Source: a virus
IMG/VR virus record: IMGVR_UViG_3300045988_079011
Reading direction: 5' to 3' (one strand)
DNA: 52,660 nt
This document shows positions 1 through 52,660 of the stretch, in pieces (within the stretch, counting starts at the first letter, position 1; every line of letters begins with the position of its first letter). Position numbers and translations under genes: made by a program. Under the pieces are notes generated by a model. That model saw only the letters and a list, made by a program, of their open reading frames with translations. It did no database searches and was not told the origin of the DNA.

Positions 1-73
1 GGGTGACATCATGGGGGATGATAGGGGGTACGCTTCGTTTTCCATCACCGGTGTATGGTAATAGTAAATCCGC

Positions 74-481
74 CTACCCGACATTTGCAGTACCGGAAAT
101 GGGCGCATCCGATACATGTTTTTCCTTTTCGATTGTCATTTGCCGGATTCGTTCCTCTAAGCGTCCGATTTCTCTATCTTGTTCCCTGATGATTTCTTCT
201 TTTTCTCTAATTAAGGCAAGGAGAGAGGATAGTTCGGTTGTTTGTGTTGTTGTAGATGATGTATTATAGTAAATATCACCTTTCCCAGTAAGTAACCAGG
301 TAGGGTTTATATCATTATGTATTTCGATAATTTTCGACACCCATAAACTTGATATATCTGTTCCTTTGCTAATGCATCTTGAAATTACTCCATTCGAGCA
401 CCCAATAGCTTGTTCAAGTGCCCTTGTACTGATACCTTTTTCTTTAATTAGGATTGCAATCCTGTCGGAAATATTCGTCAT
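74..481 (-). CDS. Phage repressor-like HTH protein with C-terminal coiled coil (Mu c position)
   Basis: 135 aa. N-terminal HTH (ISTRALEQAIGCSNGVISRC) followed by the NPTWLLTGKG motif common in Bacteroidales XRE-like regulators. C-terminal heptad-rich EEIIREQDREIGRLEERIRQM. Divergent from the early operon. Confidence 0.7.
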   Translation of the reverse strand: MTNISDRIAILIKEKGISTRALEQAIGCSNGVISRCISKGTDISSLWVSKIIEIHNDINPTWLLTGKGDIYYNTSSTTTQTTELSSLLALIREKEEIIREQDREIGRLEERIRQMTIEKEKHVSDAPISGTANVG

Positions 482-512
482 AAGTCGTAAATTATCTACA
501 TAAAACTTTTTA

Positions 513-559
513 GTGTCGAAAATATTCTATATATTTGCAGCGTGTTCAAAAAGGAACAC
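513..559 (+). promoter_or_regulatory. Early promoter/operator region
   Basis: -7 box TATATTTG at 530-537 matches Bacteroides TAnnTTTG. Palindrome GTGTTC-N6-GAACAC at 542-559 sits over the expected start site. GTGTCGAAAAT at 513-523 has an inverted copy at 330-340. Confidence 0.45.
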
Positions 560-614
560 CGCGCCAAATATACGAAAAAGGCATGTGATTAGCGAATTTT
601 AAGGATTAAAGAAA

Positions 615-821
615 ATGAACGAAGAAATAAAAGAATGGCAGACACAGAGCGTGAAGCACAAGGTGGCTTACGTGTTGATGATGGACGGTATCAGCTTCAG
701 ATATACCGAAGAGACCGGGATTGTGTTTTCCGCACCTGATTTTTATGTGAAGAACCTTATCCGCCGCCTGATGAGTTGTTACGGCGTGAGTTTGAAACCG
801 ATTATAAACGAATTTAAATAA
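615..821 (+). CDS. Hypothetical early protein
   Basis: 68-aa ORF, first gene of the rightward early operon, tightly spaced to the next ORF. Confidence 0.5.
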   Translation: MNEEIKEWQTQSVKHKVAYVLMMDGISFRYTEETGIVFSAPDFYVKNLIRRLMSCYGVSLKPIINEFK

Positions 822-829
822 GTGAGATT

Positions 830-1246
830 ATGGAAAACAAGAAAATGAGTTGCTGGGATTTTGTATTCAGTTCTGTAAAGACCCATATAGATGATTTGGT
901 AAGACAGGCTGACAAGTACACCAAAGACATGAATGAGGATTTTGAACATTTCTTCTGCTGGTATGCCGAGGATATGTACAAGACGCAACGTGAACTTTCC
1001 TGTTACCGTGCCTTGAAGGTGGTTTTATCTGCCGGTAGCCATGATGATGTAAAGTTATACATGGAAAGCAAGATAAACAGTCTGACTGATAGTCTTCTTA
1101 CCGGAAGCATCCGCAAGAACAGCACCAGTGCGGCTTCAAATTTGGCGCATACGTTGGAACTGGAAGTGAACCAGAAGATACGTGAGAAATTCACTATACT
1201 TCTTGGGATTATTGAAAAAGGTGAAAAGGTTGAGGGACAACAGTAA
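830..1246 (+). CDS. Hypothetical early protein
   Basis: 138-aa ORF in the operon with normal amino-acid composition. Confidence 0.55.
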   Translation: MENKKMSCWDFVFSSVKTHIDDLVRQADKYTKDMNEDFEHFFCWYAEDMYKTQRELSCYRALKVVLSAGSHDDVKLYMESKINSLTDSLLTGSIRKNSTSAASNLAHTLELEVNQKIREKFTILLGIIEKGEKVEGQQ

Positions 1247-1304
1247 ACCCAGCGTGACAACCCGGAAGGCGTTAAGAGACGGGTGACGGTGTGGAAAGAC
1301 ACAC

Positions 1305-1353
1305 GGGAGTGCATGGTTCTTGTGCCGGGGTTCGATTCCCCGGACTCCCCCCA
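1305..1353 (+). ncRNA. tRNA-like acceptor/T-arm minihelix with encoded CCA (not a complete tRNA)
   Basis: GGGAGT (1305-1310) pairs with ACTCCC (1344-1349). CCGGGG-TTCGATT-CCCCGG (1325-1343) is a canonical T-arm with a TTCGATT loop. Then C + CCA (1350-1353). No D arm or anticodon arm can be drawn. Confidence 0.3.
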
Positions 1354-1379
1354 ATATTAATCATTAAAACAAGTGAGAT

Positions 1380-1754
1380 ATGAACAAGAGGTACATTCAC
1401 ATTACGAAAGCCGACCGCGACTTTATCGCAAAGGCACTCAACGTGACAGAGAAGACTGTTTATAACGCTATCCGGTTTGATGACCGTCGTGGCAACTCCG
1501 AACTTTCTGCAAAGATCCGTAAGTTGGCCATGGATCGTGGCGGTATTGTGATGGTTGTTATTCCGGAAATAGAAACTTTCCATGATTATGACAATGTGAT
1601 GCGTCAGTACTGTCCGAACGGTGCCTTGATAGAGCTTGACCGTAATGATGGTAGCGGTCAGGTAATATTCAAGGGAGAAACGGTGAAGACTTACGAGCAT
1701 GTGATGGTTGCCGATATTAACCAAATCCAAGCGTTTGCATCGGCATTGAGATAG
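1380..1754 (+). CDS. Small HTH DNA-binding protein (Ner/Cro position)
   Basis: 124 aa. HTH-like DFIAKALNVTEKTVYNAI. Immediately upstream of the transposase. Confidence 0.55.
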   Translation: MNKRYIHITKADRDFIAKALNVTEKTVYNAIRFDDRRGNSELSAKIRKLAMDRGGIVMVVIPEIETFHDYDNVMRQYCPNGALIELDRNDGSGQVIFKGETVKTYEHVMVADINQIQAFASALR

Positions 1755-1763
1755 GAGGCGGCT

Positions 1764-3803
1764 ATGTTGGTGTATTACGGTAACATACAGTGTATTTCTG
1801 CACGTGAGCTCATAGATGGCGGCTATATCACCGAATCCTGCTACAGGAACTGGGTGAACCGTGGCCGTATCAAGGTGGTGCGTCGTGGTGGAGGTGCTGC
1901 TGGAAATTGCGCGTTGGTCGCCCTCAATAGCCTGCCTACCGAGTGTCTGGAACGGGTGAAGGAAGACAACCCCGGTGGAACAGAGCAGGCACTTCGCCAC
2001 TGGATACTCTCAAACTATGTGCTGGATCAGGCTGCAGTAGCCTATTTTTTGGATTGGGCTTCTCATTCTTCCAGCAACAGAGCAACAGACGAACTTGCCC
2101 GGAAATATGCGGTGAATGCTTCCGTGTTGAATACTTGTATCAAGCTTTATAACAGAAGCAATGATTACCGAAAACTGATGGGTGAAAAATATAACTGGGA
2201 CATGATGGCCACCACCATCGAGACCCTACGCGAAGACTTTGGTCATGATCTTCCTGCCAGTACCCTTCGTTTCCGCAAGAAAGTGAACGAATATAAGCAA
2301 TACGGTTATGAATGTTTGATAACCGGAAAATTCGGCAACCAGAACAAACGGAAGGTAACTCACATGGACGAACGCCTGGTGATGAGTTTGAAAGTACTTC
2401 CCAACCAACCATACGGCAGTGATGTGCATGAAATGTATCTGTCGTTTGTATGCGGTGAACTGGAAGTATGGGATCTGGAAACAGGAGAGATATTCAATCC
2501 GGAAAACTTTACGGATAAGAACGGGGAACCGAAAGAACTGAGCGAAAGCACTATCCGGAACATACTGAACAACCCGGCAAGCCAGCTGCTGATAGAAAAA
2601 GCCTTGCGTGGACGTATGGAATTCTATCATGAGCAAATGCCGCACATGCACCGCCATGGTGGTAAGTTCTCCCTGTCACAAATAACGATGGATGACGTGG
2701 ATTTGCCGCGTCGGATGAAAGGCGGCGAGTATGTGCATGCCTATTATGCTTATGATGTGGTGAGCCAGTGCCGTATCGGGCTGGCCTACGGGCGGGATAA
2801 GGATGATGCCTTGGTAGTGGACTGTTTTCGTGATATGTTCCGGCTCATCGAACGCAACGGATGGGGTATTCCAGCCGGTATTGAGGTGGAGCAGCACTTG
2901 ATGAGCAAGTATAAAGAAGGATTCCTGAAGGCAGGTGAGGTATTTAAGTTTGTGCATTTCTGTGCCCCACAGAACTCACAGGAGAAATATGCTGAAGCTC
3001 TGAACGGTGCGTTCAAGACAACCATAGCACATAAGAACCATGAAGCCATTGGCCGCTGGCATAACAAAGGTGCACGGCGGGTGGACCAGAAGAAAGTGAG
3101 TGACAGCAGCAACCACACCTGGGAAGACAGAAAGTATTATACGTTTGAAGAGCTTGTGGCGGACGACCGGCGCGATTGTGAAGAATGGAACAATACGCTT
3201 CACCCCAATCAAAAGAAATATCCCGGAATGACCCGTTGGGATGTGCTCGTAGCCAAAATCAATCCGACCCTTCGACCGCTTGATAAACTGACCTTGAGCA
3301 GATATATCGGAGAAAAGGTAGATACCAGTATTCGTAGAAATTCCACAGTACGTGTGGCAAATGCGGACTGGTGGCTGAGCGGTCCGGAAGTGCTGGAGCA
3401 GCTGGAACCAAACAACCGCAAGGTGACGGCTTACTATCTGCCGGATGAAGAGGGCAAGCCTACGGATGTCTTCCTGTACCAGAACGACCGCTACCTTGAC
3501 AAGGTTCGTCCGGTAGTGACTTACAACCGGGTGATGGCAGAACAGACCGAAGAAGACCGGGTAGCCTATACAGAGCAAAACAAAGTTCTGAGTCATTTCA
3601 GCAAATACCTCAATGACCACGCCATCGGAAAGGTGGGAACCGGTACACCGGATCAGCCAACGGATGACCCGGAAGAGGAACTGGAACTTCCCCCGGTGGA
3701 ACTATCCGATGATTTGCCAGCCGAATTGTCGGCAGATCCGGAATCAGATTATGAATGGCACTCCGGAATAAGCGAGGCAATGAGGGCCATCAGTGACATG
3801 TAA
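1764..3803 (+). CDS. Mu A-like transposase (putative DDE)
   Basis: 679 aa. Lies between the Ner-position HTH and the MuB-like ATPase (Mu c-ner-A-B synteny). Acidic candidates in the MDDVDL / YAYDVV / GIEVEQH segments. The catalytic triad is not verified. Confidence 0.65.
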   Translation: MLVYYGNIQCISARELIDGGYITESCYRNWVNRGRIKVVRRGGGAAGNCALVALNSLPTECLERVKEDNPGGTEQALRHWILSNYVLDQAAVAYFLDWASHSSSNRATDELARKYAVNASVLNTCIKLYNRSNDYRKLMGEKYNWDMMATTIETLREDFGHDLPASTLRFRKKVNEYKQYGYECLITGKFGNQNKRKVTHMDERLVMSLKVLPNQPYGSDVHEMYLSFVCGELEVWDLETGEIFNPENFTDKNGEPKELSESTIRNILNNPASQLLIEKALRGRMEFYHEQMPHMHRHGGKFSLSQITMDDVDLPRRMKGGEYVHAYYAYDVVSQCRIGLAYGRDKDDALVVDCFRDMFRLIERNGWGIPAGIEVEQHLMSKYKEGFLKAGEVFKFVHFCAPQNSQEKYAEALNGAFKTTIAHKNHEAIGRWHNKGARRVDQKKVSDSSNHTWEDRKYYTFEELVADDRRDCEEWNNTLHPNQKKYPGMTRWDVLVAKINPTLRPLDKLTLSRYIGEKVDTSIRRNSTVRVANADWWLSGPEVLEQLEPNNRKVTAYYLPDEEGKPTDVFLYQNDRYLDKVRPVVTYNRVMAEQTEEDRVAYTEQNKVLSHFSKYLNDHAIGKVGTGTPDQPTDDPEEELELPPVELSDDLPAELSADPESDYEWHSGISEAMRAISDM

Positions 3804-3841
3804 GAATAGAATTAGAACAACATTAAAACAGCGTTAGAATT

Positions 3842-4720
3842 ATGATTACAGAAGCGCAAAAACAGAAGATTTTAGCAGCGATAGCCGCCAACCGTGCGAA
3901 CTATCCCAGTGATGCCAAGCATGCTGCCTCTTTAGCCATCAGTACATCTGTGTACAGTGCAATCAAGAACGGACAGACAGACAAAGCCCTGAGCGATGCC
4001 AACTGGATAAGCATTGCCCGCAAATTAGGGGTGAACCTCCGTGGTGAAATGGAATGGAAAGCAGCCAAGACCCCGACCTTTGAATATATAACTGCCCAGC
4101 TGGAGTTCTCACAGCAGTCCAGTCTGTCGGGCATCTTGTGCGACATGCCCAATATCGGCAAGACTTTCACGGCACGTTATTATGTGCAAAGCCACAAGAA
4201 TGCCGTTTATATCGACTGCTCGCAGGTAAAGACAAAATTGAAGTTGGTACGCAAGATTGCTGCAGAGTTTGGTGTGGACAGCAAGGGGAAGTATTCTGAT
4301 GTGTATGAAGACCTGGTATATTACCTCCGTTCGATGGAAACCCCGCTTATCATCCTCGATGAAGCAGGCGACCTGCAGTATGAAGCTTTCCTGGAACTGA
4401 AGGCCTTATGGAATGCCACTGAGCGCTGCTGCGCCTGGTATATGATGGGGGCAGACGGATTGAAAGAGAAAATCAACCGGTCCATAGAATGTAAGAAGGT
4501 GGGCTATACCGAAATGTTGAGCCGTTATGGTGACCGGTACAGCAAGGTGACTCCGGATGATGGAAAGGAGCGCGAACAGTTCTTGAACAACCAGGCACGT
4601 ATTGTAGCCAAGGTAAATGCTCCTGCGGGGGCTGATATAGCCCAGATTGTACGGAAGACATGCGGTGGTTTGAGAAGAGTCTATACCGAGATTGAGAAAC
4701 TTAAAATGACAGCGGAATAA
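3842..4720 (+). CDS. MuB-like AAA+ ATPase / transposition helper
   Basis: 292 aa. N-terminal HTH-like region, Walker A MPNIGKT, Walker B LIILDEAGD. Directly follows the transposase. Confidence 0.8.
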   Translation: MITEAQKQKILAAIAANRANYPSDAKHAASLAISTSVYSAIKNGQTDKALSDANWISIARKLGVNLRGEMEWKAAKTPTFEYITAQLEFSQQSSLSGILCDMPNIGKTFTARYYVQSHKNAVYIDCSQVKTKLKLVRKIAAEFGVDSKGKYSDVYEDLVYYLRSMETPLIILDEAGDLQYEAFLELKALWNATERCCAWYMMGADGLKEKINRSIECKKVGYTEMLSRYGDRYSKVTPDDGKEREQFLNNQARIVAKVNAPAGADIAQIVRKTCGGLRRVYTEIEKLKMTAE

Positions 4721-5346
4721 TGAAGCGTGCGTACAGTCCGAAGGAAATAGCCGCCAAGAAATGGGTTACTCTGCCGTGGGATGAGAAATGGAGCAAACCT
4801 TTCGGGTTCCCGGCAGAGAACGCTTCGTGGTTCATCAGCGGTGCCAGTGCCAGTGGGAAAAGCAGCTTTGTGATGCAACTTGGAAAGGAACTGTGCAACT
4901 ATGGGACGGTGCTGTACATGAGTTACGAAGAGAAAATCAACCAAAGCTTCCAACGGCGTATGGGTTATCTGAAGATGAATGAGGTGCAGGGTAAATTTCG
5001 TGTGGTGACAGAAGGCAGTCTGGAGGAAGTGATTGCCAGACTGAAAAAACCGAAAAGCCCGAAGTTTATCATCATCGATTCCTTTCAGGTGGCCGGATGG
5101 GATTATCCGCAGGCTGTGGAACTGATGGAAACCTTTCCGAAGAAATGTTTCATCTGGATCAGCCAGGAAAAGAAAAGCCAGCCGATGGGTGGCGGTGCAG
5201 TAAGATTGAAATATATCTGTGATATGAAGATTCGGGTGGTCGGTTATAAAGCTTATTGTCAAGGACGCGCCATTGGAGACCCGGGAAGCTATTATGTGGT
5301 ATGGGAAGACGGAATCATTCAAACAAGTAATAATTTACCAAAATGA
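4720..5346 (+). CDS. P-loop NTPase (RecA/KaiC-like fold suspected)
   Basis: 208 aa. Walker A GASASGKSS, Walker B FIIIDSF. Its start overlaps the upstream stop (TAATG). Confidence 0.65.
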   Translation: MKRAYSPKEIAAKKWVTLPWDEKWSKPFGFPAENASWFISGASASGKSSFVMQLGKELCNYGTVLYMSYEEKINQSFQRRMGYLKMNEVQGKFRVVTEGSLEEVIARLKKPKSPKFIIIDSFQVAGWDYPQAVELMETFPKKCFIWISQEKKSQPMGGGAVRLKYICDMKIRVVGYKAYCQGRAIGDPGSYYVVWEDGIIQTSNNLPK

Positions 5347-5591
5347 TTATGGATAATAACGAGAAGGCTTTTGAAAGCTACACCGGAACTGAAGTGTTCC
5401 AGATACTGCTGGACGGAAATTCCAGCCGGTCCGTATTGGATGACTGGCTGGAGCGAAACATCCAAAGCGACTTAAAAGTGAGAAGAGCGAAAATGCCCGG
5501 TCATGTCGTAATAGAAACGGGTGATGTCTTGTTTGCACGTAATGTGCTGATATGGAATCCAAGTTGTAAAGTAAACATTAAAAAGATTTGA
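5343..5591 (+). CDS. Hypothetical early protein
   Basis: 82-aa ORF with an ATGA overlap to the upstream gene. Confidence 0.5.
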   Translation: MIMDNNEKAFESYTGTEVFQILLDGNSSRSVLDDWLERNIQSDLKVRRAKMPGHVVIETGDVLFARNVLIWNPSCKVNIKKI

Positions 5592-5592
5592 A

Positions 5593-6066
5593 GTGATGGA
5601 AAAGAAAGAAGAAAAGAAAGTGTGCTGCATCTGCGGCAAAGAGTATGAGGGCTACGGATACAATCCGTTCCCGGTGAAAGAAGAAGGCTGCTGCTGCCAA
5701 TCGTGCAACTACAGTGTGGTCGTTCCGGAACGGTGGGAACGGCACAAGGCTTATCAGCGCGGTGAGGCGACCGGTGCCGGGAAGGTGTACATCAGCGGAG
5801 CTATCGCGCATTATGACATGGATGAGCGCAAGGAAGCCTTCAGCCGTGCCGAGGAGGAACTGAAGGCACAAGGCTATGACCCTGTAAACCCTTTCAGGAA
5901 CGGATTGCCGGATGAAGCTCATTGGAGAGCCCACATGCGGGCCGACATTGCCCTGTTGCTGGCTTGTGACTATATCTATATGCTGAAGGACTGGGAACTG
6001 AGCAAGGGAGCCAAACTGGAACTTGACGTGGCCAGTTCGTGTGGCATTAAAGTGTTGTTTGAATAA
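5593..6066 (+). CDS. Zn-ribbon + DUF4406 / nucleoside 2-deoxyribosyltransferase-like protein
   Basis: 157 aa. N-terminal CCICG...CCCQSC cysteine cluster. The C-terminal part (VYISGAI...AF..AEEELKAQGYDPVNP...CDYIYML.DWELSKGA.LE) matches my recollection of the DUF4406 pattern. Confidence 0.55.
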   Translation: MMEKKEEKKVCCICGKEYEGYGYNPFPVKEEGCCCQSCNYSVVVPERWERHKAYQRGEATGAGKVYISGAIAHYDMDERKEAFSRAEEELKAQGYDPVNPFRNGLPDEAHWRAHMRADIALLLACDYIYMLKDWELSKGAKLELDVASSCGIKVLFE

Positions 6067-6077
6067 AATTAGTCGAT

Positions 6078-6350
6078 ATGGGAAAAATAAAAATGGAAAC
6101 CGGTGTTGTGGTGATGAAGTTGACCGCTACGGTATATAGAGGAACAATTCGTGAAATCCAATCCTCACGCATAGGTTTTTGCGGGGAGTACAATAAAGAA
6201 ATACTTTCTAAAATGGGTGATGAGTTCAAAAAGATATTTGCTAAGCAAATTGAGGCTGAATACAAAGGTAAATCAGTGAAGCCGGATAAGATAATTTATC
6301 GTGTCAGTACCAAATCAACGGAATGTGAAATGATTCTTAATGGTAAATGA
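6078..6350 (+). CDS. Hypothetical early protein
   Basis: 90-aa ORF in the operon. Confidence 0.5.
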   Translation: MGKIKMETGVVVMKLTATVYRGTIREIQSSRIGFCGEYNKEILSKMGDEFKKIFAKQIEAEYKGKSVKPDKIIYRVSTKSTECEMILNGK

Positions 6351-6846
6351 CATGGCACAGGAAGTAACCAATTTCGCCCGGTTCTACACATTGTTCAACA
6401 AGCTTCCCTGTACAGGAGACCGGGAAGAATTCAAGAAAAGCATTGTGCTGCAGTACACGTGGAACCGGACGGACAGTCTGAAGGAAATGACAGCCAAGGA
6501 GTATGAAGCCTGCTGTACGGCTCTGGAGAAGCTGAGCGGACAAGACGAATGGCGACAGAAGCTGCGTGAGGAGCTGCGGCGGAAACGGAGTCTCTGTCTG
6601 AACCTGATGCAGAAGCTGGGCATAGATACATCCGACTGGGCACGAATCAATGACTTCTGCAGTAATCCCCGAATAGTCGGCAAAGCGTTCAGACAGATTA
6701 CGGTGGACGAACTGGATGAACTGGCGGTAAAGCTTCGGTCCATACAACGGAAAGGCGGCTTGAAGCCCAGGAAAGAAAAGCAAACGATTAACCCCGTGAG
6801 CATGGTATCACTCATTCAGATTGACCCTGATGCTCCGGCAAACTGA
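6340..6846 (+). CDS. Hypothetical early protein (possibly GemA/DUF1018-like)
   Basis: 168-aa ORF. Position and size resemble Mu gemA-family proteins. Sequence support is weak. Confidence 0.5.
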   Translation: MVNDMAQEVTNFARFYTLFNKLPCTGDREEFKKSIVLQYTWNRTDSLKEMTAKEYEACCTALEKLSGQDEWRQKLREELRRKRSLCLNLMQKLGIDTSDWARINDFCSNPRIVGKAFRQITVDELDELAVKLRSIQRKGGLKPRKEKQTINPVSMVSLIQIDPDAPAN

Positions 6847-6852
6847 TAGGAT

Positions 6853-7035
6853 ATGGAAAATAGAAACACAAAGATTTTAGAGAATCTGAAAAAGGAAATC
6901 AACCTGCTTGCCTCTGATATGGAGAAGCAAGATGCAGCCGAGTTTTATAGTGAATTGGCTGACTGGGCATACGCCAACGGAGAGGCTATGCTGATGGAAG
7001 ACGAACCTGAAATGCAGGATTATGAAAACCAATAA
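6853..7035 (+). CDS. Small acidic hypothetical protein
   Basis: 60-aa ORF, Glu/Asp-rich, in the operon. Confidence 0.45.
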   Translation: MENRNTKILENLKKEINLLASDMEKQDAAEFYSELADWAYANGEAMLMEDEPEMQDYENQ

Positions 7036-7053
7036 CCCCAAAAAACAAGAATC

Positions 7054-7722: not shown

Positions 7723-7733
7723 ATAATAGAACT

Positions 7734-7970
7734 ATGATACAAGAAGTGGAGAAATCTCCGAAAGTAGCCCTGTGCCGTGCTTGCTACGGTACAGGTAAAG
7801 TAAAGAAAGTTGTAGAATATCCCTCTCGGATCTTTGGAAAGAAGCGAAGCGAAACCGTTGAGGAAGTCTGCAGACAGTGTGAAGGAAGTGGCCGGGTAAC
7901 GGTAAGCGCAAAAATGACGCTTGACATCCGTCCCTATAAACCTAAAGTAGAACCGTCTATGAACGATTAA
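7734..7970 (+). CDS. DnaJ-type CxxCxGxG zinc-finger protein
   Basis: Two CxxCxGxG repeats (CRACYGTGKV, CRQCEGSGRV). I prefer the ATG at 7734 to the tracked GTG at 7686, which overlaps the upstream gene by 37 nt. Confidence 0.55.
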   Translation: MIQEVEKSPKVALCRACYGTGKVKKVVEYPSRIFGKKRSETVEEVCRQCEGSGRVTVSAKMTLDIRPYKPKVEPSMND

Positions 7971-7976
7971 ACCTAT

Positions 7977-9198: not shown

Positions 9199-9214
9199 CC
9201 GTCTTTATTAGACA

Positions 9215-10757: not shown

Positions 10758-10782
10758 GATATGAATGTTATTTATTGCGATA

Positions 10783-43404: not shown

Positions 43405-43446
43405 AAAAAAGCCGCAGACGGTAATTTGTACGTCCGCGGCTTTTTC
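43405..43446. terminator. Bidirectional terminator (arm copy)
   Basis: Exact copy of 9215-9256. Confidence 0.7.
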
Positions 43447-43462
43447 TGTCTAATAAAGACGG

Positions 43463-44684: not shown

Positions 44685-44690
44685 ATAGGT

Positions 44691-44927: not shown

Positions 44928-44938
44928 AGTTCTATTAT

Positions 44939-45607: not shown

Positions 45608-45625
45608 GATTCTTGTTTTTTGGGG

Positions 45626-45808
45626 TTATTGGTTTTCATAATCCTGCATTTCAGGTTCGTCTTCCATCAGCATAGCCTCTCCGTTGGCGTATGCCCAGTC
45701 AGCCAATTCACTATAAAACTCGGCTGCATCTTGCTTCTCCATATCAGAGGCAAGCAGGTTGATTTCCTTTTTCAGATTCTCTAAAATCTTTGTGTTTCTA
45801 TTTTCCAT
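45626..45808 (-). CDS. Small acidic protein (arm copy)
   Basis: Exact copy of 6853-7035. Confidence 0.45.
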   Translation of the reverse strand: MENRNTKILENLKKEINLLASDMEKQDAAEFYSELADWAYANGEAMLMEDEPEMQDYENQ

Positions 45809-45814
45809 ATCCTA

Positions 45815-46321
45815 TCAGTTTGCCGGAGCATCAGGGTCAATCTGAATGAGTGATACCATGCTCACGGGGTTAATCGTTTGCTTTTCTTTCCTGGGCTTCA
45901 AGCCGCCTTTCCGTTGTATGGACCGAAGCTTTACCGCCAGTTCATCCAGTTCGTCCACCGTAATCTGTCTGAACGCTTTGCCGACTATTCGGGGATTACT
46001 GCAGAAGTCATTGATTCGTGCCCAGTCGGATGTATCTATGCCCAGCTTCTGCATCAGGTTCAGACAGAGACTCCGTTTCCGCCGCAGCTCCTCACGCAGC
46101 TTCTGTCGCCATTCGTCTTGTCCGCTCAGCTTCTCCAGAGCCGTACAGCAGGCTTCATACTCCTTGGCTGTCATTTCCTTCAGACTGTCCGTCCGGTTCC
46201 ACGTGTACTGCAGCACAATGCTTTTCTTGAATTCTTCCCGGTCTCCTGTACAGGGAAGCTTGTTGAACAATGTGTAGAACCGGGCGAAATTGGTTACTTC
46301 CTGTGCCATGTCATTTACCAT
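45815..46321 (-). CDS. Hypothetical early protein (arm copy)
   Basis: Exact copy of 6340-6846. Confidence 0.5.
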   Translation of the reverse strand: MVNDMAQEVTNFARFYTLFNKLPCTGDREEFKKSIVLQYTWNRTDSLKEMTAKEYEACCTALEKLSGQDEWRQKLREELRRKRSLCLNLMQKLGIDTSDWARINDFCSNPRIVGKAFRQITVDELDELAVKLRSIQRKGGLKPRKEKQTINPVSMVSLIQIDPDAPAN

Positions 46322-46583
46322 TAAGAATCATTTCACATTCCGTTGATTTGGTACTGACACGATAAATTATCTTATCCGGCTTCACTGATTTACCTTTGTA
46401 TTCAGCCTCAATTTGCTTAGCAAATATCTTTTTGAACTCATCACCCATTTTAGAAAGTATTTCTTTATTGTACTCCCCGCAAAAACCTATGCGTGAGGAT
46501 TGGATTTCACGAATTGTTCCTCTATATACCGTAGCGGTCAACTTCATCACCACAACACCGGTTTCCATTTTTATTTTTCCCAT
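46311..46583 (-). CDS. Hypothetical early protein (arm copy)
   Basis: Exact copy of 6078-6350. Confidence 0.5.
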   Translation of the reverse strand: MGKIKMETGVVVMKLTATVYRGTIREIQSSRIGFCGEYNKEILSKMGDEFKKIFAKQIEAEYKGKSVKPDKIIYRVSTKSTECEMILNGK

Positions 46584-46594
46584 ATCGACTAATT

Positions 46595-47068
46595 TTATTC
46601 AAACAACACTTTAATGCCACACGAACTGGCCACGTCAAGTTCCAGTTTGGCTCCCTTGCTCAGTTCCCAGTCCTTCAGCATATAGATATAGTCACAAGCC
46701 AGCAACAGGGCAATGTCGGCCCGCATGTGGGCTCTCCAATGAGCTTCATCCGGCAATCCGTTCCTGAAAGGGTTTACAGGGTCATAGCCTTGTGCCTTCA
46801 GTTCCTCCTCGGCACGGCTGAAGGCTTCCTTGCGCTCATCCATGTCATAATGCGCGATAGCTCCGCTGATGTACACCTTCCCGGCACCGGTCGCCTCACC
46901 GCGCTGATAAGCCTTGTGCCGTTCCCACCGTTCCGGAACGACCACACTGTAGTTGCACGATTGGCAGCAGCAGCCTTCTTCTTTCACCGGGAACGGATTG
47001 TATCCGTAGCCCTCATACTCTTTGCCGCAGATGCAGCACACTTTCTTTTCTTCTTTCTTTTCCATCAC
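46595..47068 (-). CDS. Zn-ribbon + DUF4406-like protein (arm copy)
   Basis: Exact copy of 5593-6066. Confidence 0.55.
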   Translation of the reverse strand: MMEKKEEKKVCCICGKEYEGYGYNPFPVKEEGCCCQSCNYSVVVPERWERHKAYQRGEATGAGKVYISGAIAHYDMDERKEAFSRAEEELKAQGYDPVNPFRNGLPDEAHWRAHMRADIALLLACDYIYMLKDWELSKGAKLELDVASSCGIKVLFE

Positions 47069-47069
47069 T

Positions 47070-47318
47070 TCAAATCTTTTTAATGTTTACTTTACAACTT
47101 GGATTCCATATCAGCACATTACGTGCAAACAAGACATCACCCGTTTCTATTACGACATGACCGGGCATTTTCGCTCTTCTCACTTTTAAGTCGCTTTGGA
47201 TGTTTCGCTCCAGCCAGTCATCCAATACGGACCGGCTGGAATTTCCGTCCAGCAGTATCTGGAACACTTCAGTTCCGGTGTAGCTTTCAAAAGCCTTCTC
47301 GTTATTATCCATAATCAT
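47070..47318 (-). CDS. Hypothetical early protein (arm copy)
   Basis: Exact copy of 5343-5591. Confidence 0.5.
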   Translation of the reverse strand: MIMDNNEKAFESYTGTEVFQILLDGNSSRSVLDDWLERNIQSDLKVRRAKMPGHVVIETGDVLFARNVLIWNPSCKVNIKKI

Positions 47319-47941
47319 TTTGGTAAATTATTACTTGTTTGAATGATTCCGTCTTCCCATACCACATAATAGCTTCCCGGGTCTCCAATGGCGCGTCCTT
47401 GACAATAAGCTTTATAACCGACCACCCGAATCTTCATATCACAGATATATTTCAATCTTACTGCACCGCCACCCATCGGCTGGCTTTTCTTTTCCTGGCT
47501 GATCCAGATGAAACATTTCTTCGGAAAGGTTTCCATCAGTTCCACAGCCTGCGGATAATCCCATCCGGCCACCTGAAAGGAATCGATGATGATAAACTTC
47601 GGGCTTTTCGGTTTTTTCAGTCTGGCAATCACTTCCTCCAGACTGCCTTCTGTCACCACACGAAATTTACCCTGCACCTCATTCATCTTCAGATAACCCA
47701 TACGCCGTTGGAAGCTTTGGTTGATTTTCTCTTCGTAACTCATGTACAGCACCGTCCCATAGTTGCACAGTTCCTTTCCAAGTTGCATCACAAAGCTGCT
47801 TTTCCCACTGGCACTGGCACCGCTGATGAACCACGAAGCGTTCTCTGCCGGGAACCCGAAAGGTTTGCTCCATTTCTCATCCCACGGCAGAGTAACCCAT
47901 TTCTTGGCGGCTATTTCCTTCGGACTGTACGCACGCTTCAT
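47315..47941 (-). CDS. P-loop NTPase (arm copy)
   Basis: Exact copy of 4720-5346. Confidence 0.65.
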   Translation of the reverse strand: MKRAYSPKEIAAKKWVTLPWDEKWSKPFGFPAENASWFISGASASGKSSFVMQLGKELCNYGTVLYMSYEEKINQSFQRRMGYLKMNEVQGKFRVVTEGSLEEVIARLKKPKSPKFIIIDSFQVAGWDYPQAVELMETFPKKCFIWISQEKKSQPMGGGAVRLKYICDMKIRVVGYKAYCQGRAIGDPGSYYVVWEDGIIQTSNNLPK

Positions 47942-48819
47942 TATTCCGCTGTCATTTTAAGTTTCTCAATCTCGGTATAGACTCTTCTCAAACCACCGCA
48001 TGTCTTCCGTACAATCTGGGCTATATCAGCCCCCGCAGGAGCATTTACCTTGGCTACAATACGTGCCTGGTTGTTCAAGAACTGTTCGCGCTCCTTTCCA
48101 TCATCCGGAGTCACCTTGCTGTACCGGTCACCATAACGGCTCAACATTTCGGTATAGCCCACCTTCTTACATTCTATGGACCGGTTGATTTTCTCTTTCA
48201 ATCCGTCTGCCCCCATCATATACCAGGCGCAGCAGCGCTCAGTGGCATTCCATAAGGCCTTCAGTTCCAGGAAAGCTTCATACTGCAGGTCGCCTGCTTC
48301 ATCGAGGATGATAAGCGGGGTTTCCATCGAACGGAGGTAATATACCAGGTCTTCATACACATCAGAATACTTCCCCTTGCTGTCCACACCAAACTCTGCA
48401 GCAATCTTGCGTACCAACTTCAATTTTGTCTTTACCTGCGAGCAGTCGATATAAACGGCATTCTTGTGGCTTTGCACATAATAACGTGCCGTGAAAGTCT
48501 TGCCGATATTGGGCATGTCGCACAAGATGCCCGACAGACTGGACTGCTGTGAGAACTCCAGCTGGGCAGTTATATATTCAAAGGTCGGGGTCTTGGCTGC
48601 TTTCCATTCCATTTCACCACGGAGGTTCACCCCTAATTTGCGGGCAATGCTTATCCAGTTGGCATCGCTCAGGGCTTTGTCTGTCTGTCCGTTCTTGATT
48701 GCACTGTACACAGATGTACTGATGGCTAAAGAGGCAGCATGCTTGGCATCACTGGGATAGTTCGCACGGTTGGCGGCTATCGCTGCTAAAATCTTCTGTT
48801 TTTGCGCTTCTGTAATCAT
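47941..48819 (-). CDS. MuB-like AAA+ ATPase (arm copy)
   Basis: Exact copy of 3842-4720. Confidence 0.8.
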   Translation of the reverse strand: MITEAQKQKILAAIAANRANYPSDAKHAASLAISTSVYSAIKNGQTDKALSDANWISIARKLGVNLRGEMEWKAAKTPTFEYITAQLEFSQQSSLSGILCDMPNIGKTFTARYYVQSHKNAVYIDCSQVKTKLKLVRKIAAEFGVDSKGKYSDVYEDLVYYLRSMETPLIILDEAGDLQYEAFLELKALWNATERCCAWYMMGADGLKEKINRSIECKKVGYTEMLSRYGDRYSKVTPDDGKEREQFLNNQARIVAKVNAPAGADIAQIVRKTCGGLRRVYTEIEKLKMTAE

Positions 48820-48857
48820 AATTCTAACGCTGTTTTAATGTTGTTCTAATTCTATTC

Positions 48858-50897
48858 TTACATGTCACTGATGGCCCTCATTGCCTCGCTTATTCCGGAG
48901 TGCCATTCATAATCTGATTCCGGATCTGCCGACAATTCGGCTGGCAAATCATCGGATAGTTCCACCGGGGGAAGTTCCAGTTCCTCTTCCGGGTCATCCG
49001 TTGGCTGATCCGGTGTACCGGTTCCCACCTTTCCGATGGCGTGGTCATTGAGGTATTTGCTGAAATGACTCAGAACTTTGTTTTGCTCTGTATAGGCTAC
49101 CCGGTCTTCTTCGGTCTGTTCTGCCATCACCCGGTTGTAAGTCACTACCGGACGAACCTTGTCAAGGTAGCGGTCGTTCTGGTACAGGAAGACATCCGTA
49201 GGCTTGCCCTCTTCATCCGGCAGATAGTAAGCCGTCACCTTGCGGTTGTTTGGTTCCAGCTGCTCCAGCACTTCCGGACCGCTCAGCCACCAGTCCGCAT
49301 TTGCCACACGTACTGTGGAATTTCTACGAATACTGGTATCTACCTTTTCTCCGATATATCTGCTCAAGGTCAGTTTATCAAGCGGTCGAAGGGTCGGATT
49401 GATTTTGGCTACGAGCACATCCCAACGGGTCATTCCGGGATATTTCTTTTGATTGGGGTGAAGCGTATTGTTCCATTCTTCACAATCGCGCCGGTCGTCC
49501 GCCACAAGCTCTTCAAACGTATAATACTTTCTGTCTTCCCAGGTGTGGTTGCTGCTGTCACTCACTTTCTTCTGGTCCACCCGCCGTGCACCTTTGTTAT
49601 GCCAGCGGCCAATGGCTTCATGGTTCTTATGTGCTATGGTTGTCTTGAACGCACCGTTCAGAGCTTCAGCATATTTCTCCTGTGAGTTCTGTGGGGCACA
49701 GAAATGCACAAACTTAAATACCTCACCTGCCTTCAGGAATCCTTCTTTATACTTGCTCATCAAGTGCTGCTCCACCTCAATACCGGCTGGAATACCCCAT
49801 CCGTTGCGTTCGATGAGCCGGAACATATCACGAAAACAGTCCACTACCAAGGCATCATCCTTATCCCGCCCGTAGGCCAGCCCGATACGGCACTGGCTCA
49901 CCACATCATAAGCATAATAGGCATGCACATACTCGCCGCCTTTCATCCGACGCGGCAAATCCACGTCATCCATCGTTATTTGTGACAGGGAGAACTTACC
50001 ACCATGGCGGTGCATGTGCGGCATTTGCTCATGATAGAATTCCATACGTCCACGCAAGGCTTTTTCTATCAGCAGCTGGCTTGCCGGGTTGTTCAGTATG
50101 TTCCGGATAGTGCTTTCGCTCAGTTCTTTCGGTTCCCCGTTCTTATCCGTAAAGTTTTCCGGATTGAATATCTCTCCTGTTTCCAGATCCCATACTTCCA
50201 GTTCACCGCATACAAACGACAGATACATTTCATGCACATCACTGCCGTATGGTTGGTTGGGAAGTACTTTCAAACTCATCACCAGGCGTTCGTCCATGTG
50301 AGTTACCTTCCGTTTGTTCTGGTTGCCGAATTTTCCGGTTATCAAACATTCATAACCGTATTGCTTATATTCGTTCACTTTCTTGCGGAAACGAAGGGTA
50401 CTGGCAGGAAGATCATGACCAAAGTCTTCGCGTAGGGTCTCGATGGTGGTGGCCATCATGTCCCAGTTATATTTTTCACCCATCAGTTTTCGGTAATCAT
50501 TGCTTCTGTTATAAAGCTTGATACAAGTATTCAACACGGAAGCATTCACCGCATATTTCCGGGCAAGTTCGTCTGTTGCTCTGTTGCTGGAAGAATGAGA
50601 AGCCCAATCCAAAAAATAGGCTACTGCAGCCTGATCCAGCACATAGTTTGAGAGTATCCAGTGGCGAAGTGCCTGCTCTGTTCCACCGGGGTTGTCTTCC
50701 TTCACCCGTTCCAGACACTCGGTAGGCAGGCTATTGAGGGCGACCAACGCGCAATTTCCAGCAGCACCTCCACCACGACGCACCACCTTGATACGGCCAC
50801 GGTTCACCCAGTTCCTGTAGCAGGATTCGGTGATATAGCCGCCATCTATGAGCTCACGTGCAGAAATACACTGTATGTTACCGTAATACACCAACAT
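48858..50897 (-). CDS. Mu A-like transposase (arm copy)
   Basis: Exact copy of 1764-3803. Confidence 0.65.
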   Translation of the reverse strand: MLVYYGNIQCISARELIDGGYITESCYRNWVNRGRIKVVRRGGGAAGNCALVALNSLPTECLERVKEDNPGGTEQALRHWILSNYVLDQAAVAYFLDWASHSSSNRATDELARKYAVNASVLNTCIKLYNRSNDYRKLMGEKYNWDMMATTIETLREDFGHDLPASTLRFRKKVNEYKQYGYECLITGKFGNQNKRKVTHMDERLVMSLKVLPNQPYGSDVHEMYLSFVCGELEVWDLETGEIFNPENFTDKNGEPKELSESTIRNILNNPASQLLIEKALRGRMEFYHEQMPHMHRHGGKFSLSQITMDDVDLPRRMKGGEYVHAYYAYDVVSQCRIGLAYGRDKDDALVVDCFRDMFRLIERNGWGIPAGIEVEQHLMSKYKEGFLKAGEVFKFVHFCAPQNSQEKYAEALNGAFKTTIAHKNHEAIGRWHNKGARRVDQKKVSDSSNHTWEDRKYYTFEELVADDRRDCEEWNNTLHPNQKKYPGMTRWDVLVAKINPTLRPLDKLTLSRYIGEKVDTSIRRNSTVRVANADWWLSGPEVLEQLEPNNRKVTAYYLPDEEGKPTDVFLYQNDRYLDKVRPVVTYNRVMAEQTEEDRVAYTEQNKVLSHFSKYLNDHAIGKVGTGTPDQPTDDPEEELELPPVELSDDLPAELSADPESDYEWHSGISEAMRAISDM

Positions 50898-50906
50898 AGC
50901 CGCCTC

Positions 50907-51281
50907 CTATCTCAATGCCGATGCAAACGCTTGGATTTGGTTAATATCGGCAACCATCACATGCTCGTAAGTCTTCACCGTTTCTCCCTTGAATATTACC
51001 TGACCGCTACCATCATTACGGTCAAGCTCTATCAAGGCACCGTTCGGACAGTACTGACGCATCACATTGTCATAATCATGGAAAGTTTCTATTTCCGGAA
51101 TAACAACCATCACAATACCGCCACGATCCATGGCCAACTTACGGATCTTTGCAGAAAGTTCGGAGTTGCCACGACGGTCATCAAACCGGATAGCGTTATA
51201 AACAGTCTTCTCTGTCACGTTGAGTGCCTTTGCGATAAAGTCGCGGTCGGCTTTCGTAATGTGAATGTACCTCTTGTTCAT
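50907..51281 (-). CDS. Ner-position HTH protein (arm copy)
   Basis: Exact copy of 1380-1754. Confidence 0.55.
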   Translation of the reverse strand: MNKRYIHITKADRDFIAKALNVTEKTVYNAIRFDDRRGNSELSAKIRKLAMDRGGIVMVVIPEIETFHDYDNVMRQYCPNGALIELDRNDGSGQVIFKGETVKTYEHVMVADINQIQAFASALR

Positions 51282-51307
51282 ATCTCACTTGTTTTAATGA
51301 TTAATAT

Positions 51308-51356
51308 TGGGGGGAGTCCGGGGAATCGAACCCCGGCACAAGAACCATGCACTCCC
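51308..51356 (-). ncRNA. tRNA-like minihelix (arm copy)
   Basis: Exact copy of 1305-1353. Confidence 0.3.
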
Positions 51357-51414
51357 GTGTGTCTTTCCACACCGTCACCCGTCTCTTAACGCCTTCCGGG
51401 TTGTCACGCTGGGT

Positions 51415-51831
51415 TTACTGTTGTCCCTCAACCTTTTCACCTTTTTCAATAATCCCAAGAAGTATAGTGAATTTCTCACGTATCTTCTGGTTCACTTCCA
51501 GTTCCAACGTATGCGCCAAATTTGAAGCCGCACTGGTGCTGTTCTTGCGGATGCTTCCGGTAAGAAGACTATCAGTCAGACTGTTTATCTTGCTTTCCAT
51601 GTATAACTTTACATCATCATGGCTACCGGCAGATAAAACCACCTTCAAGGCACGGTAACAGGAAAGTTCACGTTGCGTCTTGTACATATCCTCGGCATAC
51701 CAGCAGAAGAAATGTTCAAAATCCTCATTCATGTCTTTGGTGTACTTGTCAGCCTGTCTTACCAAATCATCTATATGGGTCTTTACAGAACTGAATACAA
51801 AATCCCAGCAACTCATTTTCTTGTTTTCCAT
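51415..51831 (-). CDS. Hypothetical early protein (arm copy)
   Basis: Exact copy of 830-1246. Confidence 0.55.
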   Translation of the reverse strand: MENKKMSCWDFVFSSVKTHIDDLVRQADKYTKDMNEDFEHFFCWYAEDMYKTQRELSCYRALKVVLSAGSHDDVKLYMESKINSLTDSLLTGSIRKNSTSAASNLAHTLELEVNQKIREKFTILLGIIEKGEKVEGQQ

Positions 51832-51839
51832 AATCTCAC

Positions 51840-52046
51840 TTATTTAAATTCGTTTATAATCGGTTTCAAACTCACGCCGTAACAACTCATCAGGCGGCGG
51901 ATAAGGTTCTTCACATAAAAATCAGGTGCGGAAAACACAATCCCGGTCTCTTCGGTATATCTGAAGCTGATACCGTCCATCATCAACACGTAAGCCACCT
52001 TGTGCTTCACGCTCTGTGTCTGCCATTCTTTTATTTCTTCGTTCAT
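51840..52046 (-). CDS. Hypothetical early protein (arm copy)
   Basis: Exact copy of 615-821. Confidence 0.5.
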   Translation of the reverse strand: MNEEIKEWQTQSVKHKVAYVLMMDGISFRYTEETGIVFSAPDFYVKNLIRRLMSCYGVSLKPIINEFK

Positions 52047-52101
52047 TTTCTTTAATCCTTAAAATTCGCTAATCACATGCCTTTTTCGTATATTTGGCGC
52101 G

Positions 52102-52148
52102 GTGTTCCTTTTTGAACACGCTGCAAATATATAGAATATTTTCGACAC
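52102..52148 (-). promoter_or_regulatory. Early promoter/operator (arm copy)
   Basis: Exact copy of 513-559. Confidence 0.45.
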
Positions 52149-52179
52149 TAAAAAGTTTTATGTAGATAATTTACGACTT

Positions 52180-52587
52180 ATGACGAATATTTCCGACAGG
52201 ATTGCAATCCTAATTAAAGAAAAAGGTATCAGTACAAGGGCACTTGAACAAGCTATTGGGTGCTCGAATGGAGTAATTTCAAGATGCATTAGCAAAGGAA
52301 CAGATATATCAAGTTTATGGGTGTCGAAAATTATCGAAATACATAATGATATAAACCCTACCTGGTTACTTACTGGGAAAGGTGATATTTACTATAATAC
52401 ATCATCTACAACAACACAAACAACCGAACTATCCTCTCTCCTTGCCTTAATTAGAGAAAAAGAAGAAATCATCAGGGAACAAGATAGAGAAATCGGACGC
52501 TTAGAGGAACGAATCCGGCAAATGACAATCGAAAAGGAAAAACATGTATCGGATGCGCCCATTTCCGGTACTGCAAATGTCGGGTAG
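52180..52587 (+). CDS. Repressor-like HTH protein (arm copy)
   Basis: Exact copy of 74-481. Confidence 0.7.
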   Translation: MTNISDRIAILIKEKGISTRALEQAIGCSNGVISRCISKGTDISSLWVSKIIEIHNDINPTWLLTGKGDIYYNTSSTTTQTTELSSLLALIREKEEIIREQDREIGRLEERIRQMTIEKEKHVSDAPISGTANVG

Positions 52588-52660
52588 GCGGATTTACTAT
52601 TACCATACACCGGTGATGGAAAACGAAGCGTACCCCCTATCATCCCCCATGATGTCACCC

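Follow-up and report, generated by a model that had tools for sequence, protein, structure and literature searches.

Hankyphage (Bacteroides phage p00) is a Mu-like transposable phage whose DGR diversifies the tail fiber (PMC6199706, PMC12135933), and transposition is the presumed mode of Hankyphage replication (PMC12135933). The DGR module of Hankyphage comes after the target gene, at the right end of the genome, the variable repeat (VR) and the template repeat (TR) being direct repeats 370 bp apart; in its close relatives, here called H-type, the distance is 603 bp. More remote arrangements are also on record: in the DGR sources compared (Wu et al. 2018, PMC5758913; DiGReF, PMC3521204; myDGR, PMC6602519), phage DGRs with the sole target ~20 kb off are already listed, and TR/VR pairs on opposite strands are described as rare but real.

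The window, that is, the whole 52,660-nt stretch of viral DNA analyzed here (Table 1), does not contain any N. Compared with p00 and jmh72_hp (PV107408.1), it evidently derives from a Mu-like transposable phage of the Hankyphage family, which is very common in the gut. It shares with Hankyphage the repressor, the MuA/MuB-like proteins, the Mu-type MuF, portal and terminase genes on the minus strand, the tail genes, a ~2,200-aa tail-fiber target with a C-terminal VR, and the set of hp41, TR, RT, 'Avd', hp44, ThyA and MTase; in both lineages, either end borders on variable host DNA. Protein identity to Hankyphage reaches 60-82% in the DGR module and 53-86% in the tail genes, but just 24-40% in the early and head genes, and the Neck1-like gene lies on the other strand. 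The predicted gene set is of the Mu type, including a MuA-type transposase, a MuB-type ATPase and Mu-type head genes, although no Pfam match was obtained for the 679-aa transposase ORF itself; among the precomputed Pfam families, Phage_Mu_Gp36 also matches an identical protein. The RT is 79% identical to the Hankyphage DGR RT and carries the SSQG and YCDD motifs, which are typical of DGR RTs; the collection indexes the identical protein in 29,552 blocks. At the Avd position lies a 161-aa protein with 63% identity to the one annotated as Avd in Hankyphage; DUF4376 is its only Pfam match and falls under the curated cut-off. Next to the module, the hairpin sits between the convergent ORFs 8764-9198 (+) and 9283-10122 (-) and is a putative bidirectional terminator.

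In contrast to Hankyphage, the lineage of the window (W-type) carries the DGR module, in the order hp41, TR, RT, Avd-like, hp44, ThyA, MTase, between the early and head genes and inverted relative to the target, the tail-fiber gene, with no other gene between it and the right terminus. As a consequence, the 113 nt shared by TR and VR are in inverted orientation, with 25.9 kb between the two copies. Similar to DGRs with remote or opposite-strand targets, RT, TR and the accessory gene would work in trans on a VR located tens of kilobases away on the other strand; unlike the listed cases, this system belongs to an extremely abundant gut phage, and the canonical arrangement with an identical RT protein is found alongside.

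Table 1. Coordinates of the features in the 52,660-nt window
Feature	Position	Strand	Basis or remark
Left arm	1..13374	+	apparently native single-copy part; early region E and DGR module (minus strand)
Repressor	74-481	-	Hankyphage similarity
MuA-like transposase, 679 aa	1764-3803	+	match to Hankyphage 'Mu A-like transposase', E=4e-18
MuB-like ATPase	3842-4720	+	Pfam AAA_22
Early region E	up to 9198	+	ORFs, the last one 8764-9198
Hairpin with flanking A and T runs	9216..9255	.	palindromic repeat D3
Remainder of DGR module	9283..11760	-	Pfam; Hankyphage similarity
D12 N6-adenine methyltransferase (MTase)	9283-10122	-	Pfam
ThyA	10119-10757	-	Pfam
hp44-like gene, 80 aa	10829-11071	-	Hankyphage similarity
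161-aa protein in Avd position	11275-11760	-	Hankyphage similarity
DGR reverse transcriptase (RT), 433 aa	11757..13058	-	RVT_1, E=2.7e-11
TR 3' flank and TR-RT spacer	13059..13261	-	starts AAATCTAATTAATCGG in RT sense; flank alleles compared
Genuine TR	13262..13374	-	113 nt, 28 adenines, 11 AAY codons, intergenic
Unique core	13375..39286	+	ORFs; Hankyphage similarity; precomputed Pfam families on identical proteins
hp41-like gene, 77 aa	13434-13667	-	ORF; Hankyphage similarity
MuF	13765-15003	-	Phage_Mu_F on identical protein
Portal	15048-16553	-	Portal_Mu on identical protein
Adaptor	between portal and TerL	-	packaging and head module
TerL	17025-18584	-	packaging and head module
TerS	18592-19056	-	packaging and head module
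Head, lysis and tail genes	core, up to target-gene body	+	ORFs; Hankyphage similarity
DGR target (tail-fiber) gene, native body	32916..39286	+	ORF list; relatives
Apparently non-native join, target-gene body to TR	39286..39287	.	comparison with relatives
Right arm	39287..52660	-	DNA of 1-13374 read again in reverse; apparently artifactual second copy
Second TR copy	39287..39399	+	occupies VR place; 100% identical to 13262-13374
First 8 nt of TR flank, AAATCTAA	39400..39407	+	premature stop for target ORF

Self-comparison of the whole window showed that 1-13374 and 39287-52660 are exact reverse complements with 0 mismatches over 13,374 nt, the identity collapsing at 13375 and 39286; chance could not have produced such arms. 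An earlier note on this DNA had already described the succession of arm, unique core and reverse-complemented arm, had quoted the junction strings correctly and had located the inner breakpoint at the DGR repeat, where the arm indeed ends at the 5' edge; the base differences between the arms that it proposed to look for do not exist. The gene duplications that it listed were confirmed by Pfam for the RT (RVT_1), the D12 methyltransferase and the MuB-like AAA ATPase, along with ThyA, and by similarity to Hankyphage for the transposase and repressor. Its 121-bp repeat has to be shortened: the stretch common to TR and VR is 113 nt long (39287-39399, AGTCC...CGTCTGG), the final 8 nt, AAATCTAA, belonging to the TR flank and being carried by no VR. 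Nor is the right copy a VR, as had been assumed, but the TR itself, which runs on into the TR flank rather than the VR flank. No diversified VR is present anywhere in the window, where the two inverted copies of the repeat are identical and no other version occurs. In all contigs, VRs continue after the common GC-rich end TCGGCTCGCGTCTGG with CCTTCCGCGG and TRs with AAATCTAA, pointing to distinct, functionally putative 3' boundary elements (IMH versus IMH*). A DGR-type RT, an AAY-rich TR and a VR at the 3' end of the target are all found in this lineage, and differences between TR and VR at TR adenines are apparent across the population, not inside the window.

The left junction is found at 100.000% identity in the complete chromosome CP131534.1 (7,302 nt across the junction) and, besides that chromosome, in about 30 other contigs. 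It occurs in 9 of the 10 longest records with an identical RT, CP131534.1 among them, in the isolate contig JGEQ01000073.1 and in 14 contigs with an invariant TR (the TR is likewise invariant in 9 long records); nine IMG/VR contigs are W-type on both flanks of the DGR module. Over its length, the left arm is collinear with JGEQ01000073.1 (99.4%), CP131534.1 (100%) and many IMG/VR contigs. This junction is native.

At the right junction, all 22 IMG/VR contigs that share the upstream 40-mer exactly carry a diversified VR, and each of the 14 that extend far enough continues into the VR flank CCTTCCGC. Across the 22 contigs, the VRs are substituted in 202 of 519 TR-adenine cells (39%) versus 53 of 1,564 cells at C, G or T (~3%), and the adenine-biased difference was seen again in 10 long records. 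The VR is positioned 20 codons before the end of the 2183-aa tail-fiber gene, and past it every high-quality relative with the shared upstream sequence has these 20 further codons, a terminator, the Mu-type right terminus 419 nt on and variable host DNA; in 10 of 10 long records, a target of 2181-2194 aa is followed by host genes. One 43.4-kb contig (L103 plus L137) combines the W-type DGR position with VR, tail and terminus. The native target protein ends in ...IGSRLAFRGKLVRAQSVAAYKAIREVA, whereas the ORF as written in the window encodes 2163 aa ending in ...IGSRLEI. Unsupported by any high-quality record, the right junction is evidently not native and supplants the VR, the last 20 target codons and the right end of the phage.

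The position of the genome ends leads to the same view of the arms. The right end ...GCGGATTATA is reached 419 nt further in eight contigs, where eight unrelated host sequences follow, and is bordered by different flanks in 10 long records as well; the left end TTTATGGGGCACAGAACGAAACG is preceded by different flanks in different records. Defined termini joined to varying host sequences point to a Mu-like transposable phage. The right-terminus motif is absent from the window, and a search for Mu-end motifs at its ends revealed no phage terminus. The true left end lies ~925 nt (about 0.9 kb) beyond position 1, five contigs extend at least 900 nt past that position, and the arms stop inside a G-rich tract; neither contig end is a phage end. 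A possible independent witness of the left tip, MT837734.1, was set aside, being itself oddly joined, with window 313-436 fused to position 27. Genuine inverted terminal repeats (ITRs) were rejected, given that the arms are not at the physical genome ends and that the duplication is absent from close relatives. In all of the latter, complete chromosomes included, the arm is present once; no relative with two arm copies was found, and no contig name recurs among the 80 RT loci kept. The real genome would comprise ~40.7 kb, with the arm, and its early and DGR genes, in single copy.

These observations also bear on whether a 52.7-kb palindromic molecule could be real, having arisen when the VR of one prophage copy recombined with the TR of a second, inverted copy and the intervening DNA was deleted. 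The geometry is possible, the two repeats being direct repeats in that configuration, and replicative transposition could generate the inverted copy. Yet the product would carry the left end twice and lack the right one, and by established Mu biology such a molecule should not transpose. Exceeding the ~40.7-kb genome by ~12 kb, it would be too long for a headful. Phage termini and host DNA are both absent from the contig ends, two arms occur in none of hundreds of relatives' contigs, and a 153-billion-gene index has no entry for the chimeric 2163-aa protein. We regard such a molecule as extremely improbable.

Instead, we assign a probability of about 0.82 to the window being a misassembled contig that folds back at the inverted TR/VR pair of a ~40.7-kb phage. 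The contig would have arrived at the VR, exited into TR sequence and the TR flank, and then retraced the RT, methyltransferase, early genes and repressor in reverse, up to the point where the left arm begins, the G-rich tract representing an assembly break. The contig probably left the repeat by the wrong path, in the assembly graph or during scaffolding, an error that would be easiest with an undiversified VR in the sample, the inverted repeat then being perfect over ~113 nt. Such a naive VR, identical or nearly so to its TR, is found in L010, and the VR in this sample is probably little diversified. The earlier note, too, had favored a fold-back mis-join with the inverted TR/VR pair as the turning point, in agreement with all the comparative evidence of a native left and a non-native right junction; the heterogeneous VR invoked there as the cause is dispensable, a naive VR resembling the TR being the simpler explanation.

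Assemblies demonstrably fail at the TR/VR repeat. Identical joints are present in four low-coverage SPAdes contigs, direct repeats are collapsed in L063, L041 and L121, L074 contains a graph-tip mis-join, and some assemblies have gaps inside the VR. True contig ends inside the VR are limited to L005 and L012; in L019, L020 and L022, also considered as such, the sequence resumes 19-40 nt later in another stored stretch, and the interruptions are probably scaffold gaps. In common with fold-back (palindromic) contigs and with misassemblies that collapse inverted or direct repeats, the window has exact reverse-complement arms, symmetric ends at one assembly break and a pivot in a repeat of approximately read length, with the true continuation lost. 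What sets it apart is that this pivot is formed by a functional TR/VR pair of a DGR. How similar TR and VR are depends on how far the VR has diversified, so that one genome may be assembled correctly in one sample and be broken, collapsed or folded back in another. The joint might alternatively have originated in the library, through a template switch in MDA, a ligation or a long-read chimera across the 113-nt homology, and been followed faithfully by the assembler. Whole-genome amplification is documented to make inverted chimeric (palindromic) reads (PMC6218980, PMC13265396), and the homology offers a possible switch point. Nevertheless, typical MDA palindromes fold locally, not over a 25.9-kb loop, and several projects' ordinary low-coverage SPAdes assemblies contain the same joint. 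We consider a library chimera very unlikely.

Recombination between TR and VR could also flip the 25.9-kb core in part of the population, the assembler having merged both isomers; the joint of target body, TR flank and RT would then presumably be real, with the duplication still an artifact. L046, a 22-kb IMG/VR contig of the same lineage, has such a structure: a heavily diversified VR is joined to the TR flank, and the contig runs from the S-end through the RT and early genes to the left terminus and host DNA. At the crossover, its VR has just 15 nt in common with the TR, and a different flank allele is found in L031, a W-type contig with the native junction from the same metagenome. A simple k-mer walk would not readily produce L046, which hints at the possible existence of physical TR x VR recombinants. 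The same joint is present in three W-allele ENA contigs, and the isolate draft L121 has a VR-TR deletion with the crossover within the last 18 nt, which shows that the repeats can act, or at least appear to act, as recombination substrates. Against such isomers, the joint occurs in 0 of 20 long, high-quality records, the copy in the window is pure TR from the first base, as expected if the TR path was reused, and a recombinant target protein would lack the last 22 residues. A search of the W-type for the reciprocal joint (hp41 side, repeat, VR flank) found none, although gapped scans are not exhaustive. Exact and gapped IMG/VR scans for recombinant or reciprocal junctions gave 0, 0 and 1 matches, the gapped scan missing the known positive L046, and these negatives carry little weight. 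Merged inversion isomers seem quite unlikely to us; it is likewise unlikely that some members of the population physically contain the joint between target body and TR flank, inverted TR/VR recombination flipping the 26-kb structural core. The physical recombinant proposed as the second option in the earlier note draws slight support from L046, and the 13.4-kb duplication would even so remain an assembly product. If TR/VR recombination does take place, the VR-TR interval would be deleted instead in Hankyphage-type genomes, crossovers would be confined to the undiversified ends of the repeat, ~23 nt on the 5' side or 15-22 nt on the 3' side, and the hypermutation device would also drive large structural rearrangement, and perhaps the decay, of a prophage that ranks among the most abundant in the human gut.

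Under the fold-back misassembly, the duplication would be without biological importance, since it is not part of the phage. The consequences concern annotation. Completeness tools take inverted terminal repeats as a sign of completeness, and the contig mimics a complete ITR genome while being 13.4 kb too long and missing both true termini, which calls for caution with "ITR-complete" calls on DGR phages. Gene counts would be inflated, with the RT, transposase, repressor and methyltransferase doubled, and the tail fiber receives a truncated, TR-encoded end; the VR being hidden, the DGR seems to have no diversified target. More generally, inverted TR/VR pairs would predispose DGR phages to fold-back, and direct repeats to collapse. 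A by-product of the analysis is a well-supported map of a W-type Hankyphage relative, including its termini, ~40.7-kb genome, remote inverted target and true right end.

Two further architectures were considered and not retained. The core plus right arm does not form a native, compact Hankyphage-like cassette, lacking any second repeat as well as the VR flank, tail and hp41 found between VR and TR in true Hankyphage-type relatives. A third natural arrangement (target, VR, tail, hp41, TR, RT, inverted early genes) was suggested by L086; the alleles of this contig are H-type as far as the RT, after which the sequence is W-type, marking it as a mosaic or as a chimera of two strains joined at the conserved RT.

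The arms of the window are identical, with 0 mismatches and identity lost immediately inside both, in agreement with the layout and junction strings described in the earlier note. Of the two explanations weighed there, a fold-back mis-join at the inverted pair formed by the DGR template repeat (TR) and the variable repeat (VR) was favored over a physical recombinant, and this reading is supported: judging from related contigs, the right junction is non-native, its repeat copy is TR itself, and the true phage ends are missing. The 13.4-kb duplication is almost certainly not real biology. A sliding scan detected a single version of the A-rich repeat, in two identical copies, and no diverged copy anywhere in the window.

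Features of the window and native sequences compared with it
Feature	Window position	Strand	Description
Arm	1-13374		
Core	13375-39286		
Reverse-complemented arm	39287-52660		
Repeat copy 1	13262-13374	minus	Intergenic, upstream of RT
Repeat copy 2			3' end of the 2163-aa ORF 32916-39407
Expected native right exit			...CACCGCTAC, then repeat ending ...CGTCTGGCCTTCCGCGG
Tail and right terminus stretch			CCTTCCGCGGCAAAATCGTCC...CATTTCGATTTGCGGATTATA
Module hp41 to MTase	9256-13668		About 4.4 kb
Neck1-like gene (186 aa) and next gene (144 aa)	8207-9198	plus	
37-nt inverted repeat	320-356 and 497-533 (mirrored 52128-52341)		About 70% complementary, with TTTTCGACAC
1070-aa ORF	33060-36272	minus	Antisense within the tail-fiber target gene

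The left junction, 13374|13375, is native. Fourteen contigs are collinear across it, with an essentially invariant TR, and in nine IMG/VR contigs window-type sequence lies on both sides of the module. The isolate contig JGEQ01000073.1 (GCA_000599025.1) is collinear with window positions 25003 to 3765 (99.4%), and the complete chromosome CP131534.1 matches positions 16058 to 8757 at 100.000%. In a survey of the ten longest records encoding the identical RT protein, nine had the window-type order and the tenth, CP143941.1, was Hankyphage-type. These comparisons indicate that the window order, with the inverted DGR module between the early and head genes, is a real, common arrangement. The TR allele follows the architecture, with 37C/98A in window-type and 37T/98G in Hankyphage-type contigs. 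The identical 433-aa RT is found in both architectures, in the complete chromosomes CP131534.1 and CP143941.1, respectively; the module spanning hp41 to MTase is relocated and inverted in the window type and lies at the right end in the Hankyphage type.

The published Hankyphage order is early genes (+), packaging/head (-), head/tail (+), tail fiber with VR, hp41, TR, RT, 'Avd', hp44, ThyA, MTase, and right end, and a relocated, inverted module is not described for Hankyphage in these papers (PMC6199706, PMC12135933). Because the inverted module position is native in the window lineage, TR and VR there form a 113-nt inverted repeat with the copies 25.9 kb apart, whereas in Hankyphage they are adjacent direct repeats. 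The inverted TR/VR orientation is rare yet documented among DGRs, and phage DGRs with one target ~20 kb away are already known (PMC3521204, PMC6602519, PMC5758913).

At the right junction, 39286|39287, the identical 40 nt preceding position 39287 are carried by 22 IMG/VR contigs, and VR comes next in all 22, differing from the window copy in 202 of 519 TR-adenine cells vs 53 of 1,564 other bases. All 14 contigs that reach far enough past VR read ...CGTCTGG|CCTTCCGC, whereas the window reads ...CGTCTGG|AAATCTAA, which is the TR flank. Because the VR and TR flanks part after ...CGTCTGG, the common repeat is 113 nt, rather than the 121 bp reported initially, and the right copy, which had been taken for VR, is TR itself. 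In the native order, VR is followed by 20 further codons, a terminator, and one of two continuations: hp41, TR, and RT in direct order in the Hankyphage type, or, in the window type, a stretch ending 419 nt after VR at ...CATTTCGATTTGCGGATTATA, beyond which eight contigs part into eight unrelated sequences. Ten further long records were chosen by the exact 241-aa upstream protein; among them are isolate genomes and a 3.7-Mb contig polished with long reads. Each encodes a target of 2181-2194 aa and has the terminus at +418 or +419, with differing host genes beyond; in none of the ten does RT lie downstream of the target. The window-type DGR position occurs together with VR, tail, and terminus in one 43.4-kb contig (L103 plus L137). 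Neither strand of the window contains the terminus motif, and the target ORF ends in ...IGSRLEI* in the window vs ...IGSRLAFRGKLVRAQSVAAYKAIREVA* in the native protein.

The contig ends, likewise, are not phage ends. Five contigs run at least 900 nt leftward past window position 1, and the true left terminus, TTTATGGGGCACAGAACGAAACG..., lies ~925 nt beyond that position, preceded by differing host DNA. The same G-rich tract is the stop point of both arms; within it, window position 4 is T vs G in five other contigs (GGGGGACATCATGGGGG), which suggests an error at the tip of the contig, at a break in low-complexity sequence. With the left terminus ~925 nt out and the right terminus 419 nt past VR, the real genome is computed at ~924 + 39,286 + 113 + 419 = ~40.7 kb, a size in line with window-type contigs that are close to complete and measure 39-43 kb. 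The window carries 13.4 kb in excess and has neither terminus. A real palindromic molecule of 52.7 kb is very unlikely, as it would have the left end twice and lack the right end, exceed the genome by ~12 kb, and end at no terminus; such a palindrome occurs in no other dataset, and no record of the chimeric protein was found. Another odd join in the public record of this phage opens the GenBank virome scaffold MT837734.1, which matches the left arm at 99.7% identity: its positions 1-124 copy window positions 313-436 and are fused straight to window position 27.

The TR/VR repeat is a proven assembly trap in the sequence records compared. The window's joint of target body, TR, TR flank, and RT recurs in SPAdes contigs: four such contigs of low coverage, drawn from different ENA assemblies, have it, and one of the four matches the window at 99% identity. 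The Hankyphage-type equivalent, collapse of the VR-TR interval at the direct repeats, was seen in two contigs (L063 and L041) and in the isolate draft L121, which equals the related record L129 minus 432 bp; L129 itself has an N-run within VR, and several contigs are broken for 19-40 nt within VR. Comparison of L121 3695-3807 with L129 2655-3199 (Phocaeicola sp. HCN-6420 contig_22 vs P. plebeius DSM 17135, a diverged lineage) showed that the 432 bp from VR to TR are missing in L121, where a diversified hybrid repeat remains beside RT, reflecting either a DGR-inactivating deletion or assembly collapse. At the tip of contig L074, 30 nt of TR-upstream sequence are spliced to a diversified VR via 25 common nt, a join that does not derive from inversion because this genome is of the direct-repeat type. 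Upstream of RT, the tail, hp41, TR, and flank alleles of L086 (IMGVR_UViG_3300035655_000066) are of the Hankyphage type; downstream of RT, its ThyA, MTase, and inverted early genes are of the window type. L086 is either a mosaic of natural origin or a chimera between strains that runs through the RT gene, which is nearly invariant; mixed flank alleles also occur in contigs L048 and L042.

In contig L010, VR is naive, matching its TR save for the first base. A VR of this kind makes the inverted repeat perfect over ~112 nt, comparable to short-read lengths, and the heterogeneous VR originally invoked for the fold-back is unnecessary. We suggest that VR in the sample was naive and TR-like, so that an assembler or scaffolder reaching VR would take the TR exit, retrace the arm on the opposite strand, and halt at the break from which the left arm starts, without including the ~0.5 kb of true right end that comprises VR flank, tail, and terminus. 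What is useful here is the warning about calling DGR phages 'ITR-complete', along with the side observations.

The right joint would be real if physical TR x VR recombination had produced an inversion isomer, although the arm duplication itself would still be an assembly product. The candidate for such an event is L046 (IMGVR_UViG_3300008482_000248, 22.4 kb), in which a heavily diversified VR is fused directly to the window-lineage TR flank and followed by RT, methyltransferase, early genes, left terminus, and host DNA. The crossover falls in the final 15 nt of the repeat, which are in common (L046 6166-6311), and the flank allele differs at three positions from that of L031 (1-241), a native-junction contig from the same metagenome. 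This pattern is expected of a physical inversion and would be less easily explained by a k-mer walk. However, collection scans, the gapped ones non-exhaustive, found no reciprocal junction for the window type, and the joint of target body and TR flank occurs in 0 of 20 long, high-quality records. We consider the isomer an improbable source of the window's joint and retain the fold-back mis-join.

The genes of arm and core are those of a Mu-like transposable member of the Hankyphage family. Pfam matches include RVT_1 reverse transcriptase, D12 methyltransferase, ThyA, and MuB-like AAA ATPase, and similarity to Bacteroides phage jmh72_hp identified the repressor, MuA-like transposase, MuF, portal, TerL, TerS, tape measure, tail proteins, and the large tail-fiber target. 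RT contains the SSQG and YCDD motifs. The adenine count of TR is 28, and 11 of its codons are AAY. Identity to Hankyphage proteins is very uneven, at 24-40% for early/head genes, 53-86% for tail, and 60-82% for the DGR module. Over window positions 1-20000 (early, DGR, and head regions), GC content is ~44-50%; most of the tail region (22000-39000) has 52-60%, with a dip to ~50% at 30-33 kb. The GC contrast and the uneven identity point to a mosaic origin.

Phage_tail_S was found on a protein identical to the Neck1-like one of the window. The Hankyphage counterparts of this gene and the next, Neck1 and hp20, lie on the minus strand, in contrast to those of the window, and a second local inversion thus separates the two architectures. 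The 37-nt inverted repeat brackets the repressor 5' end and the divergent early promoter region and may represent an operator site. The 1070-aa antisense ORF, located in a part with 56-60% GC, is probably a compositional artifact.
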